Sequence record: MT446396.1
DNA length: 64,000 bases
DNA from: Escherichia virus TH22
Reading direction: 5' to 3' (one strand)
Within the stretch, counting starts at the first letter, position 1. Every line of letters begins with the position of its first letter. Position numbers and translations under genes: made by a program. The notes beneath the pieces were generated by a model. That model was given only the letters and a program-made list of their open reading frames with translations, was not told the DNA's origin and made no database searches. Below are positions 16,481 to 62,191 of the stretch, piece by piece.

Positions 16481-16545
16481 AGGGGTGTACAAGCCCCTTT
16501 GAACGGTGTATCATTATCCCATCAACTACTGATGAGGAAAACAAA
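16481..16545 (+). promoter_or_regulatory. stem-loop + early promoter with family-A leader
   Basis: AGGGGTGTACAAGCCCCT hairpin, TATCATTAT, CCCATCAACTACTGATGAGG. Confidence 0.5.
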
Positions 16546-16722
16546 ATGGTTATTGAAGATAAAGAAATTAAAGTCAACCAGTATTATTCAATCAACGGCA
16601 AAGCTGTTTTAGTAACTGAAATATCTAGCCTGGATGTGTGGTATACCATAATTGACCTTGGTATTAAAATGATTTGTGACCGTGGAGTGTTTTGTTCGAT
16701 AGCTAAGGAAATTAAATTATGA
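16546..16722 (+). CDS. hypothetical protein
   Basis: 59 aa from ATG after family-A leader. Confidence 0.35.
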   Translation: MVIEDKEIKVNQYYSINGKAVLVTEISSLDVWYTIIDLGIKMICDRGVFCSIAKEIKL

Positions 16723-26751: not shown

Positions 26752-27120
26752 ATGATTGAAATTACATTAAAGCAACCTGAAGACTTCCTGAAAGTTAAAG
26801 AAACTCTGACCCGTATGGGCATCGCAAATAATAAAGACCGTGTACTTTACCAGAGCTGTCACATCCTCCAAAAGCAAGGCCGTTACTATATTGTTCACTT
26901 CAAAGAAATGCTGCGCATGGATGGCCGCCAGGTGGATATTGATGGTGAAGACTATCAGCGCCGTGATTCCATCGCTCAACTGCTCGAAGACTGGGGCTTA
27001 ATCACTATCAAAGAAGAAGAGCATAATGAATTGTTTGCAGTAACAAACAACTTCCGTGTTATCTCCTTTAAACAAAAAGACGACTGGAAGCTCGTAGCCA
27101 AATACACAATTGGCAATTAA
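26752..27120 (+). CDS. regA: translational repressor RegA
   Basis: 122 aa; near-collinear with T4 RegA (MIEITLK...NNFRVISFKQK...KYTIGN). Confidence 0.9.
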   Translation: MIEITLKQPEDFLKVKETLTRMGIANNKDRVLYQSCHILQKQGRYYIVHFKEMLRMDGRQVDIDGEDYQRRDSIAQLLEDWGLITIKEEEHNELFAVTNNFRVISFKQKDDWKLVAKYTIGN

Positions 27121-27129
27121 TTTAAAGCA

Positions 27130-29925: not shown

Positions 29926-29996
29926 TGTTTACAACGGCAAAGGATTGCCGTATGATTACTCCATCAACTACTGATGATTAAATTAAGGATATTAAA
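29926..29996 (+). promoter_or_regulatory. early promoter with family-A leader
   Basis: GTTTACA, TATGATTACT, CCATCAACTACTGATGA. Confidence 0.5.
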
Positions 29997-30239
29997 ATGG
30001 AAACATTAATTGCAGGTACTGTTGTTCTTGGTGCTGGTTCTTTCTTCCTGGCTGCACTGGCATATTTTCTGCCGTGGATTATCGCGCTACTGCGAGGAAC
30101 CAAAAGTAATTGCGGAATCTTCTTTGTTAACCTCCTGTTAGGTTGGACAATGGTCGGGTGGTTTATTGCATTTATCTGGGCACTCGTTGCTGAACGTAAA
30201 TCAAACGCACAAGTAATTATCATCAAGGAAACCAAATGA
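29997..30239 (+). CDS. imm: superinfection immunity membrane protein (Imm-like)
   Basis: 80-aa two-helix membrane protein immediately downstream of gene 43, as T4 imm. Confidence 0.45.
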   Translation: METLIAGTVVLGAGSFFLAALAYFLPWIIALLRGTKSNCGIFFVNLLLGWTMVGWFIAFIWALVAERKSNAQVIIIKETK

Positions 30240-33915: not shown

Positions 33916-33925
33916 AATATTTTAA

Positions 33926-33949
33926 AAGGGGCTTACGGCCCCTTTTTCT
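33926..33949 (+). terminator. intrinsic terminator
   Basis: GGGGCTTACGGCCCC hairpin + TTTTT. Confidence 0.65.
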
Positions 33950-33986
33950 TATGTTATAATGACCCTATCAACTACTGGAGAATAAA
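33950..33986 (+). promoter_or_regulatory. early promoter with family-A leader
   Basis: TATAAT 33955-33960 then CTATCAACTACTGGAG. Confidence 0.5.
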
Positions 33987-34304
33987 ATGAAAACTATTGA
34001 TTGCAAGGCGGAATACAAAGTTTATTATCATGGCTCAAGCTCTAATGCTGGAATCCAAAATATGCTTTGCCCTCCTGATGCAACTGGTGTTCTGTCAGAA
34101 GTTGGGCGTAAGAAAAATTTAGGGCGTGTGTTTTTTACTGAAGATATTGGTTTGGCGCGTATCTATGCAGGAAGAGCAGCTCGCTCATATGGAGGAGAAC
34201 CCCGTCTTTATCGTGTGATTGCACCTGTTGACGTGGTTTGTTTAAATGATACTAAAGGCGCAACCGTTTATCACGCCGCCTGGGCCTTCTGTGAGGAAAT
34301 CTAA
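33987..34304 (+). CDS. hypothetical protein with PARP-like HGS / G-x-[VI]-[FY]-F-[AT]-[DE] motifs
   Basis: 105 aa; YYHGSSSNAGI ... GRVFFTEDIGLARIY resembles the NAD-binding signature of H-Y-E class ADP-ribosyltransferases; too short for a full catalytic domain. Confidence 0.4.
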   Translation: MKTIDCKAEYKVYYHGSSSNAGIQNMLCPPDATGVLSEVGRKKNLGRVFFTEDIGLARIYAGRAARSYGGEPRLYRVIAPVDVVCLNDTKGATVYHAAWAFCEEI

Positions 34305-34508: not shown

Positions 34509-34748
34509 ATGAATATCACATTAATGAAACCTACCCCTAGTTCTTTTTGGAATAAATCTTTTGGTAAGCATAATATGTTTATCCAACGCACCGTAAGCAG
34601 CTGGGAACTAGTTCTTTCGGAAGACCATGGCGGTTATGAACAAGAATACGTAGAGTTCTTCGAATTTCCTGTGAAACCTACCAAGCGTCAGATTCGTCAG
34701 ACAAAACGCAAATTCCGTAAAATTTATCTGGAAGATGCATTAAAATAG
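34509..34748 (+). CDS. hypothetical protein with basic C-terminal tail (PTKRQIR)
   Basis: 79 aa; tail motif shared with ORF 35901..36122. Confidence 0.3.
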   Translation: MNITLMKPTPSSFWNKSFGKHNMFIQRTVSSWELVLSEDHGGYEQEYVEFFEFPVKPTKRQIRQTKRKFRKIYLEDALK

Positions 34749-34805
34749 TGTACAACAAAGGGATAATGCTGTATATTATCCATATCAACTACTGAGGAGA
34801 TTGAA
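34748..34805 (+). promoter_or_regulatory. early promoter with family-A leader
   Basis: GTGTACA, TATATTAT, CCATATCAACTACTGAGGAG. Confidence 0.5.
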
Positions 34806-35099
34806 ATGAAAAAGTTATTAATCGCGGCAATTCTTACCGTAGCATCATGTGGTACAGCTCCAGTTACTGCTGGACTTGATAAAAACCTTTGTGAGTGGTC
34901 TATGACTGCGGACCAAACTGATGTTGAAACTCAAATTCGCGCTGACATCATGAATATTACTAAACGTGACCGCCCTGATATGGTTAAAGAAGTATCTGAC
35001 CAATTGACTTCTGGTGACGTTATGCAGTATAACTATGTTCTGTATTGCGATGCTTCATTTGACAATAGCAAAATTGTTCAATGGGTTACAGGTGAATAA
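34806..35099 (+). CDS. sp: Spackle-like periplasmic superinfection-exclusion protein
   Basis: 97 aa, signal peptide (LTVASCG); size and position (61.3 slot between 41 and 61) match T4 Sp. Confidence 0.5.
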   Translation: MKKLLIAAILTVASCGTAPVTAGLDKNLCEWSMTADQTDVETQIRADIMNITKRDRPDMVKEVSDQLTSGDVMQYNYVLYCDASFDNSKIVQWVTGE

Positions 35100-35100
35100 A

Positions 35101-35538
35101 ATGATTAACAGAAATTTGGTTATCAAAAAACTTCGTTGTAAAAATCCAAATGCGCAGGCATACAGGGTGTTTTGGAGCGACGAAATTCAATATCTGGGTT
35201 ATTTTCTTGTTGATAGTGATGATAGAATTACGTTTGCTCATAAACTTCTTAACAAAGAATTAAACCATTGGAAAGAACTTATTGCAGTCAAGTCTAAATT
35301 ATTTTCGCGCAATACAATGCACCAATTGGTTTATTTTTTCGCTGATGGTATTCCTGACAAGGTTGAGTTTGAAGGGTTTGAATTTAAAGACATCAACCCT
35401 GACAATGAATTGAATGACAGTATTGTTAATATGGGTATCCCTGGCAAGTACATCAAAAACAGTCTTTTGAAAATTCTGGAAAATCCTGTTTATTCAGTTG
35501 ACGACCAGATTTTTAATGCCTTCATGAAGCGAGATTAG
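35101..35538 (+). CDS. hypothetical protein
   Basis: 145 aa; C-terminus DDQIFNAFMKRD repeated in next ORF. Confidence 0.35.
   Translation: MINRNLVIKKLRCKNPNAQAYRVFWSDEIQYLGYFLVDSDDRITFAHKLLNKELNHWKELIAVKSKLFSRNTMHQLVYFFADGIPDKVEFEGFEFKDINPDNELNDSIVNMGIPGKYIKNSLLKILENPVYSVDDQIFNAFMKRD
35499..35536 (+). repeat. 36-38 bp direct repeat, copy 1
   Basis: GACGACCAGATTTTTAATGCCTTCATGAAGCGAGATTAG; near-identical to 35860..35897. Confidence 0.8.
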
Positions 35539-35539
35539 T

Positions 35540-35899
35540 ATGAGTTATTATAATTTTCTGAATTTTGAACTGGTGAGCAATAATAATGGTAATGCTCACT
35601 ATGAATTTCGTGAGCCCCGTTATAATCAGGCGATTGGTTATATCATCGTTAAAGATGGTGTTATCATAAAGGCTCGTTCGTTTATGACAATGAATGGGCC
35701 TTGTGAAGATAATCGTGGTTATCCATTTGATAAAAAGAACGTACGCGATTGTGCAGTATGGATAACCGGAAACCCTGAAATTGGGGTCATGATATCTACT
35801 GAAGCAAATGACATTCTGGAAGGGGCTTGGGTTAAAGCTCAAGAACCGCCTACTGATATTGATGACCAGATTTTTAATGCCTTCATGAAGCGAGGTTAA
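35540..35899 (+). CDS. hypothetical protein (bracketed by direct repeats)
   Basis: 119-aa ORF ending DDQIFNAFMKRG. Confidence 0.35.
   Translation: MSYYNFLNFELVSNNNGNAHYEFREPRYNQAIGYIIVKDGVIIKARSFMTMNGPCEDNRGYPFDKKNVRDCAVWITGNPEIGVMISTEANDILEGAWVKAQEPPTDIDDQIFNAFMKRG
35860..35897 (+). repeat. 36-38 bp direct repeat, copy 2
   Basis: GATGACCAGATTTTTAATGCCTTCATGAAGCGAGGTTAA. Confidence 0.8.
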
Positions 35900-35900
35900 T

Positions 35901-36122
35901 ATGTTTGTTTTGACCCAATTCTCTAAAGCAATATATAGTTACTCTTGTCAGTGGGAAGTCTTTATTGATACTCCGTCTCCCAAGTATGGAGTTTTTGGAC
36001 GAGTAACTACTCAAGCTTATGTTGCACGACCGACCAAACGTCAGATTCGTAAACTTAAAAAGGCACATCGTCAATTGATTAAAAGAAGGGAACAATATGA
36101 GTGCAATGTGTACGGGCTCTAA
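35901..36122 (+). CDS. hypothetical protein with basic C-terminal tail (PTKRQIR)
   Basis: 73-aa ORF. Confidence 0.3.
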   Translation: MFVLTQFSKAIYSYSCQWEVFIDTPSPKYGVFGRVTTQAYVARPTKRQIRKLKKAHRQLIKRREQYECNVYGL

Positions 36123-36288
36123 GATTTCGGTCTTCCAGATTTTTGAAGAATATGAAATCGTGTCGCAAGACCAAGAAGCAATCCATGTTATCGCTGATGA
36201 TGGTGTTACCTGGATTATTCCGTTGTATCATGAAGACACTTATGAAGTGACTGATGCAAATGGTGATAAAGCTATCTTCGTTGTATAA
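36097..36288 (+). CDS. hypothetical acidic protein
   Basis: 63-aa ORF. Confidence 0.3.
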   Translation: MSAMCTGSKISVFQIFEEYEIVSQDQEAIHVIADDGVTWIIPLYHEDTYEVTDANGDKAIFVV

Positions 36289-36291
36289 ATA
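36284..36291 (+). promoter_or_regulatory. T4-type late promoter core TATAAATA
   Basis: exact TATAAATA 17 nt upstream of a small ORF. Confidence 0.4.
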
Positions 36292-36307
36292 GCGGAAAGG
36301 GGGTGTT

Positions 36308-36475
36308 ATGAAAACATTCAAAGATTTTATCAACGAAGATATGGCTGCCGGTGATGCAGGTGGAAACCCAACTAATATCGCAACAGGTACCACTTCCGGG
36401 GCAGTTGTCAATAAAGGCCCTGAACAAATCCCATCAAAAAAGCGTAAGAATAAAGACGATAAACCTACAGTATAA
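36308..36475 (+). CDS. hypothetical small Gly/Lys-rich protein
   Basis: 55 aa with GGGGTG-containing SD; followed by hairpin; below track cutoff. Confidence 0.3.
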   Translation: MKTFKDFINEDMAAGDAGGNPTNIATGTTSGAVVNKGPEQIPSKKRKNKDDKPTV

Positions 36476-37937: not shown

Positions 37938-38456
37938 ATGGCTCATTTTAATGAATGTTCACAACTGATTGCCGGTGTTGATAAAGCTGAAGAAGCTTAT
38001 GACAATGCAATTACAAAAGGTACTGACCCGCTGCAGATTATGCTTGATATGCAGAAATCATTGCAAGTTCGTCTGGCTACTGAAAAACCAGAATATAACT
38101 CACATCCAGATGAATTGGCTACTGCAGGTGATGTTGTTGCATGGCTTCGTAACCAGAAAGATTATGTCGACGACGAATTCCGTGAACTTCTGACTTCTCT
38201 CGGTGGTATGTCTAATGGCGAGAAAGCTGCATCTAGTGTATGGAAACCATGGAAAGTCCAACATGCTGAATTCCGTAATCGTCGTATTGATGAGTTGTCT
38301 CCCGAAGACCAGCTCGAAATTAAATTTGAGATGATTGATATCCTGCACTTTGTTCTGAACATGTTCCATGGCCTTGGACTGACTGCAGAAGAAATCTTTA
38401 AATTGTATTACCTGAAAAACGCTGAGAACTTTGCTCGTCAGGACCGGGGTTATTAA
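37938..38456 (+). CDS. 56: dCTPase/dUTPase-type NTP pyrophosphatase gp56 (MazG-like)
   Basis: 172 aa from MAHFNEC; collinear with T4 gp56 (EFRELLTSLG, MIDILHFVLN, FARQDRGY). Confidence 0.8.
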   Translation: MAHFNECSQLIAGVDKAEEAYDNAITKGTDPLQIMLDMQKSLQVRLATEKPEYNSHPDELATAGDVVAWLRNQKDYVDDEFRELLTSLGGMSNGEKAASSVWKPWKVQHAEFRNRRIDELSPEDQLEIKFEMIDILHFVLNMFHGLGLTAEEIFKLYYLKNAENFARQDRGY

Positions 38457-40643: not shown

Positions 40644-41204
40644 ATGAACATCATCAAATCTGATACCGAACCCAACCAGTTAAAATTTAGTGAAATGGAG
40701 ATAGCTTCATTATTTGAATGCCGTACATCAAAGGTTGATAAGACCTTGCATTCAAATGTCAACTCAATCATCAAGTCAAGGTTGTCTATACCCGATACAG
40801 TCTTGTGGCGCGGGGTAACCCAGCAAGAGATTGATTTGTTAGATGAAGCAAAAGAATCAATGCAACCTTTTGAATTTGGACGGATAACCTCCTTTACAGA
40901 AGACTATGGTATTGCCAGGGATTTTGCTGCAATGGAATATGTGACTAGGACTATCGTCAGATTGAATCAGACCAAAGCTTTTTGTTACCATGATGCGATG
41001 CGCAAAATCGCACTTGATGTTCCACTTGAATTCTTCAATACAGCTTCTGGTTCCGCACGGGCAGCTACATTAAGGCGTGAAGAATACATGGACATGATTG
41101 ATTCCGAGCTTGAATGGTTTGTTCCAGTTGACCAGAAATTCGTGGTAGTTGATGCTGGATTTATTGATGATTATTATGTTCTTGACTGTGTACAAGAGCA
41201 ATAA
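40644..41204 (+). CDS. modB: ADP-ribosyltransferase, ModB-like (R-S-E class)
   Basis: 186 aa; R in LWRG, S-x-T in SFT, E-x-E in ELEWFVP; upstream paralog as modB is in T4. Confidence 0.65.
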   Translation: MNIIKSDTEPNQLKFSEMEIASLFECRTSKVDKTLHSNVNSIIKSRLSIPDTVLWRGVTQQEIDLLDEAKESMQPFEFGRITSFTEDYGIARDFAAMEYVTRTIVRLNQTKAFCYHDAMRKIALDVPLEFFNTASGSARAATLRREEYMDMIDSELEWFVPVDQKFVVVDAGFIDDYYVLDCVQEQ

Positions 41205-41248
41205 GACACGTTAAGATGTTCCTATCAACTACTGATGAGGATAATAAA
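41182..41248 (+). promoter_or_regulatory. early promoter with family-A leader
   Basis: TTGACTGTGTACA ... CCTATCAACTACTGATGAGG. Confidence 0.45.
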
Positions 41249-41863
41249 ATGCTGTACACTGATGACGTTTTGAATGGAATTATTGACACTGCCGCTTCTA
41301 GTGAGTCTTTTCGTAACCAATGCCAAGCGGAGATTGATGCTCTTTATACAGATAATGAGCAATCAGTACTCTGGCAGTGTATGGAAAATAAACCTGACCT
41401 GATTCAAGAAGACTTGTCCAGGATTATCCGCAACAATCTGAATACTGCACCACCCCCGGCGTTGTTCCGTGGTATATCAAAGAAAACTATGGAATACCTG
41501 GAAGATTTAAGATATGTTGGTGCAACGATTGAATTCAATCGTGTAATGAGTTTTTCCAGGGACTGGCAGGTTGCAAGAAATTTCGCATCATACAGTTTCT
41601 ATGGAACAAGGAATATTTTCTGCATAAACAATGCACCATATGCGTATAACTATCAGGAAGCAATCTTCAAAATGATTTGTGGTGCTCCTCCTGAAGAGTT
41701 CAATGGTGCATATCCAGAAGCAACCAGGAAGTCAAACTTGCACCTGGTTAATGATGAAGATGAGTTTATGTTTCCCGCTGGGACTACGCTCCGCGTAGAC
41801 TTGATTGAAACACACCCATTGAATAACCTGTATACTGTTTGGCATTTGACTGTTTTGAACTAA
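41249..41863 (+). CDS. modA: ADP-ribosyltransferase, ModA-like (R-S-E class)
   Basis: 204 aa; LFRG, SFS, EDEFMFP; paralog of the upstream gene. Confidence 0.65.
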   Translation: MLYTDDVLNGIIDTAASSESFRNQCQAEIDALYTDNEQSVLWQCMENKPDLIQEDLSRIIRNNLNTAPPPALFRGISKKTMEYLEDLRYVGATIEFNRVMSFSRDWQVARNFASYSFYGTRNIFCINNAPYAYNYQEAIFKMICGAPPEEFNGAYPEATRKSNLHLVNDEDEFMFPAGTTLRVDLIETHPLNNLYTVWHLTVLN

Positions 41864-45325: not shown

Positions 45326-45386
45326 GTGTACAAGGCCAATGGAAAGAGACATAATCATCTCATCAACTACTGATGAGGATAACAAA
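45326..45386 (+). promoter_or_regulatory. early promoter with family-A leader
   Basis: GTGTACA, CATAAT, CTCATCAACTACTGATGAGG. Confidence 0.5.
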
Positions 45387-45644
45387 ATGATTACTTCTTT
45401 TGAAATTGGCCAACAATATGAAATGTCTGCTCTTCAAGCTGCTGAAGCAGGTCTGACTGAAGCGTTTGAATGTGCATTTACAAATATTCGTGGTAAAATC
45501 TTTACTGTCAATAAAATTGCGGTATATGATAAAGAAACAGACATGAACAAAGGCATCTACCTGAACGTGTCAAACGCCAAAGGTCGTCGTGAAATTATGG
45601 TTGTACAACCTAATCAACTGGCGATGTTCAATAAGGTTGCATAA
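45387..45644 (+). CDS. hypothetical protein
   Basis: 85 aa from ATG after family-A leader. Confidence 0.35.
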   Translation: MITSFEIGQQYEMSALQAAEAGLTEAFECAFTNIRGKIFTVNKIAVYDKETDMNKGIYLNVSNAKGRREIMVVQPNQLAMFNKVA

Positions 45645-46402: not shown

Positions 46403-46474
46403 GTGTACAAACTCTTGGGGTCAGAGTATAATGACCCCACTGGAGAATAAACTTATTAACCAAGAGAGAAAATT
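46403..46474 (+). promoter_or_regulatory. PeSL-type cassette (family C)
   Basis: GTGTACAAACTCTTGGGGTCAGAGTATAATGACCCCACTGGAG; 43 nt identical to 57280..57322. Confidence 0.6.
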
Positions 46475-56381: not shown

Positions 56382-56436
56382 GTGTACATCTCCAGTGGTT
56401 GTAGTATAATGAACCTATCAACTACTGGAGATGATT
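56382..56436 (+). promoter_or_regulatory. early promoter with family-A leader
   Basis: GTGTACA, TATAAT, CCTATCAACTACTGGAG. Confidence 0.5.
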
Positions 56437-56547
56437 ATGAAAAACTTACTTAAAGCAATTTGGAACATGTTTGTGTTGTTAATGGTATTGAGCATTTTCC
56501 CAATCGTTTTTATGATTGACCATGTACGTGTATTCTTTAACTTCTGA
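56437..56547 (+). CDS. hypothetical small hydrophobic peptide
   Basis: 36 aa, one transmembrane-like helix; GGAG SD. Confidence 0.25.
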   Translation: MKNLLKAIWNMFVLLMVLSIFPIVFMIDHVRVFFNF

Positions 56548-56935: not shown

Positions 56936-57280
56936 ATGTCTAAAGTATTTTTTGGTAATCGCAACATTATGTTCTTTAAACAGATTAGCGTATCAGAAGC
57001 ATTTGATTTAAGTTATTCAGGTGGTACAAAAGCTGTTAACCTTAAAAATTTGATGTCTGCAGAATTTGCATTCTATCAGGACCCTGAAACTGGTTTCTAC
57101 AAATTTATTAAGTTCCGCATGACTATGGACCGAGATTATCGCGATGTTTATTATACAAGTTATGAGAGTGTTATCAATGCAATTCGCGAAGCTTATGGAT
57201 TGGATTCGTTGTCTCTTGACCGCTTGTATAATGCTACTTTTTATACGAGCGGATTTATTTTAGAACAACTTCAAAAATAG
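56936..57280 (+). CDS. hypothetical protein
   Basis: 114-aa ORF. Confidence 0.3.
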   Translation: MSKVFFGNRNIMFFKQISVSEAFDLSYSGGTKAVNLKNLMSAEFAFYQDPETGFYKFIKFRMTMDRDYRDVYYTSYESVINAIREAYGLDSLSLDRLYNATFYTSGFILEQLQK

Positions 57281-57353
57281 TGTACAAACTCTTGGGGTCA
57301 GAGTATAATGACCCCACTGGAGCACAAAACTTTAACTTACTGAGGAAATTAAT
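57281..57353 (+). promoter_or_regulatory. PeSL-type cassette (family C)
   Basis: 43-nt core identical to 46403..46445. Confidence 0.6.
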
Positions 57354-60776: not shown

Positions 60777-60783
60777 GGAAATT

Positions 60784-61116
60784 ATGAATAAGCTGAATAT
60801 TGTTAATGAATTGCGCGCTTGTGTAGAACCTACTCAAGAGGGTTGGGATGTTTGGTATCATGGCGCTTACCTTGGAACTATTATCAAGGTCAAAGCTGGT
60901 CAGTATCTTATCCATCGTCAGGATGATGCAGTAGCTCCGTTTGGTGCACGCAAGAACTTCATGGCAGCGATTGGTGCCTTTGTTCCAGCAGCATATGAAG
61001 TATATAAAGCTGACTACAAAGAATACCAGGAATCACAACCAGTTATTCGCTCAATTGGTGTTAATAAAGCTCAACAGAAAAGTCTGTGGCAACGTGTTAA
61101 AGGTTGGTTCAAATGA
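60784..61116 (+). CDS. hypothetical protein
   Basis: 110-aa ORF. Confidence 0.3.
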
Positions 61117-61601
61117 ATCCATTAAAAGGTAAAGAATTATCCTTTAAAGACCGTATAGCTTTATTAGATAAAGCTCTTTCTCGCGAGACTCCAGAAAGCC
61201 TCGCTGCTAAATTACGGGCATATGGTGATTACACCGAATATAATGAAGAAGATGTCCTGGAAGAAGTCCCGGAAATCTGTTGGCAGATTGCTCATTGGAA
61301 CAACAATGAAAAATATCAGCGCCGGATTGTGTGCGCAGCCAACCGCTTCAGGTTAAAAGATGGTGGGACTCTGGTTATTCCTGGTGCCAGACATTATTCA
61401 AAAGATATGGCAGAAGTTCTTGACCAGGTAAGTGATAAACTTGTGTCAGACCATGTTTGTGGTGATAATCAAGGATTCATTGACCAATACAGCAATTACT
61501 GGACCCGCGAAGAAGCAATGATTATTGCGACTTATGCAAATCAGGTGCGCATTGAACGTGGCGGTAGTGAGAAAGAACTTTATTCAGAGGACCTTTACTA
61601 A
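61104..61601 (+). CDS. hypothetical protein
   Basis: 165-aa ORF. Confidence 0.3.
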
Positions 61602-61879: not shown

Positions 61880-62191
61880 ACACGATTTCAATAAGGCGTC
61901 TGTCCATAAGGACAAGAAGAAAACAGAAATGCAGTCCAAACGTAAGCAGAAGCACAAGGGGAATCACTATGAGTCATAACTTAGAGAATGCCATCACTGG
62001 TCAGCGTACACGCGAGCAGGCTTGCTTTGAGGAATTCCTTGGAGCTGATTTTAAGTTCCAGGAACCAGTTGAACAGATGTATCAGGAATATGTTGTACAG
62101 ATGGAAAATCATGTGTACAACCCAGAGGAATAATAGTACAATATCCTTACTGAATAATTGAATGTCTTATTGAATACTTGAGTAAATTAAA

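Follow-up and report, generated by a model that had tools for sequence, protein, structure and literature searches.

Organization of the locus and of the repeated leaders

The window analyzed here, a stretch of DNA of 64 kb, comes from a T4-like phage of the genus Gaprivervirus. The 3-kb piece around the focal copy of the element described below shows 100% identity with Escherichia phages UPEC07 and TH55 and 95-98% identity with SP18-like phages, and the window as a whole is 98.2% identical over its full length with UPEC07, which is classified in Straboviridae, Tevenvirinae, Gaprivervirus. The genes near the focal copy all lie on the + strand and are all orthologs of T4 early or middle genes (tk, rI, nrdD/G/H, 55, 47, 46, 45, 44, 62, regA, 43, imm, uvsX, 41, dmd, sp, 61, modB, modA, srd, dda, dexA, motB, cef, 39, rIIA/B, ndd, 52, motA and asiA). 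The window contains regA (26752-27120, PF01818); regB is found in UPEC07 (PF10715, E = 2.9e-72) and falls beyond the limits of the window.

An earlier note on this DNA listed eight ATGs (2559, 16546, 29997, 33987, 34806, 41249, 45387 and 56437) behind a shared leader, and each of them is indeed preceded by an exact copy of the 11-mer ATCAACTACTG, hereafter the core. The copies and their parts are as follows.

2501-2561, + strand: copy before a small ORF at the mobD.5 position (-35 GTTTAC at 2501, -10 TACTAT at 2525, core 2537-2547, GGAG at 2549, ATG at 2559)
16485-16548, + strand: copy before the ORF after nrdH (-35 GTGTAC at 16485, -10 TATCAT at 16509, core 16521-16531, GAGGAA without GGAG/U, ATG at 16546)
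29927-29999, + strand: copy before imm (-35 GTTTAC at 29927, -10 TATGAT at 29951, core 29963-29973, 34-nt leader, GGAT at 29987, ATG at 29997)
33924-33989, + strand: copy after gene 41 (-10 TATAAT at 33955, core 33967-33977, ATG at 33987)
33924-33946, + strand: terminator-like hairpin AAAAGGGGCTTACGGCCCCTTTT of the copy after gene 41, with the -35-like GCTTAC in its loop
33977-33987, + strand: Shine-Dalgarno (SD) part GGAGAATAAAA of the copy after gene 41, an exact RegB/S1 consensus
34748-34808, + strand: copy before sp (spackle) (-35 GTGTAC at 34748, -10 TATATT at 34772, core 34784-34794, GGAG at 34796, ATG at 34806)
41188-41251, + strand: copy before modA (-35 GTGTAC at 41188, -10 TAAGAT at 41212, core 41224-41234)
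41239-41249, + strand: SD part GGATAATAAAA of the modA copy, ATG at 41249
45326-45389, + strand: focal copy, the whole element from the -35 G to the ATG
45326-45331, + strand: focal -35 GTGTAC of a T4-type early promoter
45350-45355, + strand: focal -10 CATAAT
45362-45372, + strand: focal core ATCAACTACTG, beginning at the predicted +1
45377-45387, + strand: focal SD and A-rich spacer GGATAACAAAA, fitting the RegB/S1 consensus GG↓A(G/U)RAYARAA (PMC3014915)
45377-45380, + strand: focal GGAT
45387-45389, + strand: focal ATG, overlapped by GGATAACAAAA
56382-56439, + strand: copy before a small membrane-protein ORF in the ndd region (-35 GTGTAC at 56382, -10 TATAAT at 56405, core 56417-56427, GGAG at 56427, ATG at 56437)

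The 11-mer has eight exact matches in the window, 8/8 of them on the + strand, where shuffles lead one to expect 0.04, and the full 17-mer is found six times when up to three mismatches are allowed, compared with 0.06 expected; chance is thus ruled out as the origin of the repeat. The copies at 33987 and 56437 read ATCAACTACTGGAGA instead of the 17-mer form. The pattern [CT]CATCAACTACTGA[GT]GAG proposed in the earlier note therefore describes six copies and fails for these two, and what is truly invariant is the 11-mer. The motif is also not confined to eight genes. UPEC07, 98% identical, carries 13 copies of the core in its whole genome (12 exact and one ACGG variant), all behind early-type promoters on the early strand and none at promoter-less genes.

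All eight copies share one layout, in which 17-18 nt separate a -35 hexamer from a -10 hexamer and the core follows after exactly 6 nt. The 6-nt gap between -10 box and core is found in 8/8 copies of the window, in 13/13 copies of UPEC07 and likewise in the 10 ATCAACT promoters of T4. The distances from core to ATG in the window are 20, 20, 22, 22, 25, 25, 25 and 34 nt and reach ~37 nt in T4. Because of this register and of sigma-70 geometry, the core starts at the predicted +1, the seventh base after the -10 box, and the first transcribed base would be the A of ATCAAC. The leading [CT]C, which had been counted as part of the 5'-UTR, sits at -2/-1 and hence 5' of the predicted start. The -35 hexamer is exactly GTTTAC or GTGTAC in seven of the eight copies, the remaining one (33931) being GCTTAC, and a correctly spaced TAnnnT-type -10 hexamer is present in all eight, one of which reads CATAAT. 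Among 46 predicted UPEC07 promoters, the -11 A and the -7 T show no variation. An A-rich, UP-like tract upstream is discernible in most window copies, and A occupies -40 in 32 of the 46 predicted promoters of UPEC07 and in 35 of 40 in T4. The core-bearing promoters are co-oriented with, and lie 5' of, imm, sp, modA and the ORFs after 41, dexA and nrdH, and in every copy (8/8) the conserved element terminates in an SD and a start codon. The element consists of two modules, a promoter-locked initial transcribed sequence (ITS) and a Shine-Dalgarno part.

To set the core apart from ordinary ribosome-binding sites, ~130 SD-led ORFs on the + strand of the window (35-aa minimum) were divided by the presence of a promoter. 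The core precedes seven of the 17 starts that have a promoter and none of the 113 that lack one, the eighth copy fronting an ORF shorter than the minimum. Generic SD context, the reading against which the earlier note had set its claim, is thereby ruled out, and the enrichment at promoter cassettes stands. A generic sigma-70 scan, which reports TGTACA-17-CATAAT (45327-45355) at the focal copy, yields 12 promoters compared with 11.5 expected and does not distinguish early promoters from background, whereas the T-even-specific pattern separates them.

The start region in T4 and other T4-like phages

A 37-nt probe reaching from the -10 box to the ATG matched 825 phage records, almost all of them T4-like, with 10-12 places per genome in Gapriverviruses, 1-3 in T4-type phages and 1-2 in Klebsiella T4-likes. 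A scan of IMG/VR for TAnnnT-N6-core gave at least 120 matches, mostly single, which by our estimate is about the chance level for 14 specified bases, and a literature search with the motif strings returned unrelated primers only. In T4, early-type promoters carry ATCAACT at +1 in ten cases and ATCAACTACTG in six, in the same -10 register, and the promoters that share the start include those of imm.1, nrdC.9, denV, e.8, trna.4, motA, ndd.6 and cef. The copies at imm.1, e.8, motA, cef and ndd.6 show a long form (e.g., ATCAACTACTGA-TACGGATTT-GGAGAATAAAATG); the 25-nt leader of trna.4, ATCAACTACTGAGGAGAATAAAATG, is identical to one UPEC07 copy; and the T4 sp promoter has ATAAACTACTGAGGAG.

When the 40 predicted early promoters of T4 are aligned on the -10 box, the consensus from +1 to +9 is ATCAACTAC, and the 46 predicted early promoters of UPEC07 give a close variant of it. 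Positions -3 to -1 are C-rich in UPEC07 and more weakly so in T4, where T is commonest at -1; the C-richness in UPEC07 agrees with the preference for C at -3 to -1 in several T4-like phages, for which promoter logos are available (Nolan 2006, PMC1524935). "Additional regions of consensus" besides the UP, -35, TGn and -10 elements have been mentioned for T4 early promoters in a review of these (Hinton 2010, PMC2988021). On these comparisons of sequence, "family A", as the earlier note named the group, is a near-consensus version of the T-even early-promoter start region, and there is very little doubt that it represents the start of T4-type early promoters. The "family-A leader" makes up the 3' half, the transcribed one, of the cassette at T-even early promoters by which the immediate-early genes of T4 are driven. 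Work by Liebig and Rueger in 1989 on promoters and ribosome-binding sites reportedly gave a T4 early consensus that probably includes the +1 region.

The likeness to T4 early promoters extends over the GT(T/G)TAC -35 box, the 17-18 nt spacer, the TAnnnT -10 box and the A-rich upstream tract; ATCAACTAC(TG) at +1 recurs at motA, imm.1, trna.4, denV, e.8, ndd.6 and cef, and both the orientation and the gene neighbourhoods (sp, imm, trna.4, denV) are equal. The C-rich -3..-1 of the present phage is that of T4 trna.4, denV and ndd.4, whereas the main T4 class has ACAACT there. The two phages differ in that -34 is usually G in this phage (GTGTAC), and in that T4 has 6 exact copies, compared with 12 exact copies plus the ACGG variant in Gaprivervirus. 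Moreover, Gaprivervirus has sub-variants of its own, ACTGATGAGGA and ACTGGAGA, and lacks the T4 long form ACTGATACGGATTTGGAG.

Orthologous promoters can also be compared between genera. The sp promoter has ATCAACTAC in Gaprivervirus and Dhakavirus, ATAAACTAC in Tequatrovirus and ATCAAATCAACTAAGGAG in Mosigvirus, and Jiaodavirus differs; its -35/-10 spacers are unrelated between most genera, and ATCAAC at +1 is retained in several. The T4 early-promoter module, including its predicted first 11 transcribed bases, is thus kept across several genera of Tevenvirinae. Some orthologous promoters of T4 have other starts, namely ATGAATTACC after nrdH, GTCGGTTAAATG before dmd and ATCGGATAAAG before mobD.5, and because these promoters function with other starts, the core is dispensable for an early promoter.

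The Shine-Dalgarno part and stems at the promoters

The SD part contains GGAG in four of the eight copies, GGAU in three and GGAA in one, and thus GGAG or GGAU in 7/8. RegB cuts GGAG/U within early translation-initiation regions (PMC3014915), and strong intergenic RegB/S1 sites have the consensus GG↓AGRAYARAA (Durand et al., as cited in PMC3014915). The whole consensus GGAG/U-RAYARAA is found in three of the eight copies (33977, 41239 and 45377); over these 11 bases the first is exact, the other two are exact with U at position 4, and the remaining five copies have one to four mismatches. GGAKRAYARAA occurs nine times on the + strand of the window and never on the - strand, compared with 0.94 expected for both strands combined, and at least seven of the nine sites lie inside leaders of family A or of family B (ATACTGAGTTAC; nine in UPEC07, none in T4). 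The strict GGAG form shows a strand ratio of 10:0 in UPEC07. The GGA of these RegB-type sites is predicted to be unpaired, as the leaders from +1 onwards are essentially unstructured.

The SD part is therefore a likely RegB/S1 target on its sequence. The earlier suggestion of a RegB-type site fits this 3' part, given GGAG/U in 7/8 copies, the full consensus in 3/8 and regB in UPEC07, and does not fit the invariant core. The sites resemble the T4 RegB/S1 sites in having GGAG or GGAU in the SD of an early leader, followed by an A-rich RAYARAA and predicted to be unpaired, in their strong strand and leader bias and in the presence of regB in the genus. They differ in that only the 3' part of the element is covered, with one copy reading GGAA and five deviating from the 11-base consensus, and in that an invariant core, for which no RegB determinant has been described, lies 5' of the site. 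The eight sites are of value for annotation, since they mark immediate-early transcription units and probable RegB-controlled ribosome-binding sites.

As for other partners of the SD part, we reason that UGAGGAG can pair with seven bases of the 3' end of 16S rRNA. A pairing extended into the core was rejected from the known 3' end, since UGAGGAG alone pairs and the core lies past the rRNA terminus. RegA sites overlap the AUG and have no discriminating consensus (PMC3014915); the spacers between SD and AUG are A/U-rich (AAUAAAAUG), and the invariant core is 9-23 nt distant from that region.

Stems are found at the promoters themselves. In both UPEC07 and T4, the last bases of the -35/-10 spacer, at its 3' end, can pair with positions -6 to +6, and the resulting stem surrounds the -10 box; the mean best stem is 4.57 in UPEC07, compared with 3.70±0.15 when partners are permuted, and 5.0 in T4, compared with 3.64±0.17. 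In the sp copy of the window, the -10 box is flanked by the stem GGATAAT/ATTATCC, and across genera the sp stem is retained while its sequence changes (GGATAAT/ATTATCC, GGGGTAAT/ATTACCCC, GGACTA/TAGTCC and AAGGCCAT/ATGGCCTT). In the 56437 copy, the spacer CCAGTGGTTGTAG is complementary to its own leader. These stems are the stem-loops of the PeSL cassettes (Arbiol 2010; Comeau 2014), in which a stem-loop is combined with an early promoter and an SD and ATG form the 3' end (PMC2839356, PMC4122927). The -35 hexamer at 16485 lies within a GGGG..CCCC inverted repeat. A stem-loop or terminator is present at some cassette copies and not at every one. Pairing of the ACTACT of the core with AGTAGT upstream of the -35 box was discarded by eye, AGTAGT being present in only 2 of the 13 family-A copies, and inspection of ATCAACTACTGA for a sigma-70 pause element in the ITS revealed no TAnnnT-like hexamer.

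Constraint on the core and probable spread of the cassette

The core is held as tightly as the promoter boxes. Among orthologous copies in four relatives, substitutions number 0/352 in the core, 0/192 in the -35 box and 2/192 in the -10 box, compared with 27/576 in the spacer and 55/768 upstream; the core has changed only in the imm copy, by a slip deletion of 3 nt (ACT). The conservation past the -35 and -10 hexamers on which the earlier note had insisted is thus borne out (core 0/352, spacer 27/576). Paralogs share only islands (-35, -10 and core) separated by unrelated spacers, and between genera, too, the core persists where spacers are unrelated. For the core, this conservation does not imply the post-transcriptional signal that had been deduced from it, the core being fixed in register to the -10 box, variable in distance to the ATG and absent from promoter-less ribosome-binding sites. 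Its promoter register and this absence suggest a role linked to initiation or to the transcript's 5' end rather than to SD geometry.

In T5 N25 and T7 A1, the start-proximal ~10-20 nt are functionally part of the promoter and govern escape, and T7 A1 likewise begins CC-ATC. Those are single promoters, whereas here one predicted ITS is common to many promoters in several genera. Because initial transcribed sequences usually tolerate many sequences, an exact 11-mer exceeds what promoter escape alone would predict; in addition, the core is not purine-rich, unlike the ITSs that favour escape. Why an exact 11-mer next to the start should be conserved as strictly as the -35 and -10 boxes bears on escape from very strong promoters and on early shut-off, as well as on the promoter cassettes that move genes in T4-like genomes.

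The sub-variant ACTACTGATGAGGA is found four times in UPEC07 and not in T4, whereas ACTACTGATAC and ACAACTATCAAC are found five and six times, respectively, in T4 and not in UPEC07. Sub-variants are thus lineage-specific yet common to paralogs, which argues that cassettes spread or convert within genomes, as has been described for PeSL cassettes. Tracts of identity among the window copies are 12-21 nt long, and T4 copies share identical tracts of up to 43 nt that reach into the first codons (imm.1 and ndd.6). The tracts of 12-21 nt are plausible recombination substrates because T4 recombines at microhomologies of 6-10 bp (PMC9391042) and PeSL crossovers have been mapped between the -10 box and the SD/ATG (PMC2839356, PMC4122927). 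Immediately upstream of the 33987 copy, TH41 and TH44 have a 724-bp block that is absent in the window and that contains a terminator, a family-A promoter and leader, an ORF, a family-B promoter and a further ORF. Among 14 indels of at least 130 bp between the window and TH41, TH57 and TH44, one or two adjoin a cassette (this block and one indel beside a family-B promoter), none of the 14 has a breakpoint inside the leader, and most lie at ORF boundaries. The earlier idea of a mobile promoter cassette is thus in line with the PeSL literature and with the lineage-specific sub-variants, whereas few of the indels adjoin a cassette. The present copies resemble PeSLs in that an early promoter, SD and ATG are combined with a stem-loop or terminator many times over among early genes, in that the stem-loops overlap the -35 box or span the -10 box, and in one indel of cassette plus ORF; they differ in that indels of the window relative to its relatives are mostly away from cassettes. 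In excerpts of the PeSL papers, the promoter boxes and the stem-loop are stressed, and the invariant +1..+11 is not singled out there.

The spread of cassettes raises the possibility that the core itself is neutral, a dispersed repeat homogenized by duplication and short-patch gene conversion that provides portable homology for PeSL-type shuffling. The lineage-specific sub-variants common to paralogs, the orthologous T4 promoters with unrelated leaders, the exact T4 tracts reaching first codons, the cassette-sized indel adjoining a family-A copy, and the coincidence of PeSL crossovers and short T4 microhomologies with this region are all as such a repeat would have it. Conserved islands among unrelated spacers, however, are the pattern of selection and not of recent copying, the core is kept at orthologous sites across genera with fully diverged flanks, the identity tracts of the window are only 12-21 nt, and no indel of the 14 breaks within the leader, so that we regard neutrality as unlikely. 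Another reading of the exact 11-mer is that a phage or host factor binds it sequence-specifically, either as a DNA operator at +1..+11 for the shut-off of early promoters or as a 5' RNA tag for recruitment of S1/RegB, repression by RegA or control of decay. Besides the absence of substitutions among orthologs, such a site would account for the restriction of the core to the early promoter class; the mechanism that shuts off T4 early promoters is stated to be unknown (PMC2988021), and both RegA and RegB are encoded. About two-thirds of the predicted early promoters nevertheless lack the core, as do orthologous promoters of T4; the determinants described for RegB/S1 are located 3' of GGAG, the sites of RegA overlap the AUG and not the 5' end, no candidate for the binding protein emerged, and the core is without the internal symmetry common in operators. 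A factor site is accordingly an improbable explanation, and the more specific notion that the +1..+11 core is a recognition element by which a phage factor marks or shuts off a subset of immediate-early units is decidedly improbable. If true, it would offer a handle on the shut-off of T4 early promoters.

A 5' hairpin fares worse. The palindrome CATCA-ACTAC-TGATG could be read as a 5' mRNA hairpin that stabilizes the transcript or masks the SD, as the arms CTCATCA/TGATGAG of the 45387 copy are perfectly complementary and two copies give good folds when taken as read-through versions (-15.4 kcal/mol). However, part of the 5' arm precedes the predicted +1, the hairpin is impossible in the TGAGGAG and TGGAG copies, and the read-through stem at 56437 joins the leader to the promoter spacer, the palindrome occurring only in the 45387 version. 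Folding of the eight leaders between +1 and codon 5 gives minimum free energies of 0 to -2.1 kcal/mol, at most 0.1 kcal/mol below the mean of their own shuffles; the leaders show no stable stem from +1 and no covariation, the G/T difference between copies being uncompensated. The palindrome was thus rejected, and a 5' hairpin is extremely improbable.

Compared with these alternatives, it is probable that the element is a composite, the start module of the T-even early-promoter (PeSL) cassette, conserved both by its function in initiation or at the 5' end and by cassette spread and conversion. Host sigma-70 RNA polymerase would bind the A-rich upstream tract, the GT(G/T)TAC -35 box and the TAnnnT -10 box and begin transcription at the A 7 nt past the -10 box. 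ATCAACTACTG(A), a near-consensus ITS of this promoter class, would then make up the first 11-12 bases of the transcript, and the product would be a G-poor, unstructured 5'-UTR of 20-34 nt that leads into a strong SD (UGAGGAG, GAGGA or GGAG) and an A-rich spacer. RegB, together with ribosomal protein S1, may cut this SD between GG and A(G/U), and the early mRNAs would be turned off minutes later. Two causes could together account for the exact conservation of the core. One would be selection on the choice of start site, on escape from a very tightly bound promoter and on a leader open to ribosome loading; the other would be the spread of the cassette and gene conversion among promoters within a genome, which may also be why uniformity is genome-specific. 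Elements of this kind are already known as the T4 early consensus, the PeSLs and the RegB sites; Gaprivervirus adds new members to them, in more exact copies than T4 has.

A second leader family and inverted repeats around the −10 box

Besides family A, the early-promoter leader with an invariant 11-mer core at the predicted +1, we found a second leader family (family B) of the pattern ATACTGAGTTAC(C/A)(A)AA...(C/T)TGGAGAATAAAATG, which starts 6 nt 3' of the −10 box, in the same register as family A. It is present in five copies in the window and nine in UPEC07, the near-identical complete genome, and is absent from T4 (0 copies). The 3' end of the family B leader is an exact sequence match to the RegB/S1 consensus, and the leader resembles the T4 long form ATCAACTACTGATAC...TTGGAGAATAAAATG without CAACT.

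Family B leaders in the window, by predicted +1
6053, family B leader
6639, family B leader
41958, family B leader
55837, family B leader
59907, family B leader

At early promoters of the window (34757-34781 among them), of T4 and of other genera at sp, the −10 hexamer is straddled by inverted repeats, in which the 3' end of the spacer is matched to positions −6 to +6. These repeats are significantly longer than those of permuted-partner controls in both UPEC07 and T4, and at the sp (spackle) promoters of four genera the inverted repeat is kept while its sequence is altered. They are probably the stem-loops of the promoter-early stem-loop (PeSL) cassettes of T4-like phages. Because no U-tract follows the repeats on their 3' side, simple terminators were ruled out.

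Near-identical promoters at separate loci

Two T4 promoters share an exact 43-nt tract from −15 to +28, and the likeness continues, near-identical, into the first codons (ATGAAAATCGCT), so that unrelated T4 loci open with the same N-terminal codons. This is evidence for copying of the cassette along with the gene start. The window also holds a pair of promoter copies, before motB and ndd, that are identical over 43 nt (GTGTACAAACTCTTGGGGTCAGAGTATAATGACCCCACTGGAG); their −10 box is enclosed by a GGGGTC/GACCCC stem, the predicted transcript start is ACTGGAG, and T4 motB has a promoter of the same design.

Promoter copies
about 27044 (AF158101), T4 imm.1 promoter
about 167050 (AF158101), T4 ndd.6 promoter
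46403-46445 (window), 43-nt copy before motB
57280-57322 (window), 43-nt copy before ndd

Differences among relatives and predicted read-through folding

Between gene 41 and the family-A cassette of ATG 33987, an extra 724 bp is present in TH41 and TH44 relative to the window. The inserted block comprises a terminator hairpin, followed by a family-A promoter/leader and its ORF and, after these, by a family-B promoter and a further ORF. This difference is a gain or loss by cassette in the dmd/tifA "anti-toxin island" region. In most of the gene-content differences from TH41, TH57 and TH44, a single small ORF is precisely inserted or deleted at an overlapping stop/start junction (ATGA, TAATG) and not at a promoter.

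Sites of difference
33916-33925 (window), site of the 724-bp insertion
35217-35939 (TH41) and 35584-36308 (TH44), insertion in the joined sequences
27119-27129, 38454-38456, 60780-60783, 61109-61120 and 61960-61972 (window), small-ORF sites, among others

In the imm copy of family A (core at window 29963-29973), one ACT of ACTACT is missing in TH41, TH57 and TH44, giving ATCAACTGATG, and T4 nrdC.10 carries the same short core. This suggests that the ACT repeat has undergone slippage and that shortening of the core is tolerated to some degree.

At the family-A copy of ATG 56437 (window 56388-56427), the leader CTATCAACTACTGG is complementary to the promoter spacer CCAGTGGTTGTAG. A read-through transcript is predicted to fold at −15.4 kcal/mol, compared with −7.7 for shuffles, and this fold would bury the leader start beside the SD; similar read-through behaviour is predicted by folding for the 45387 copy.
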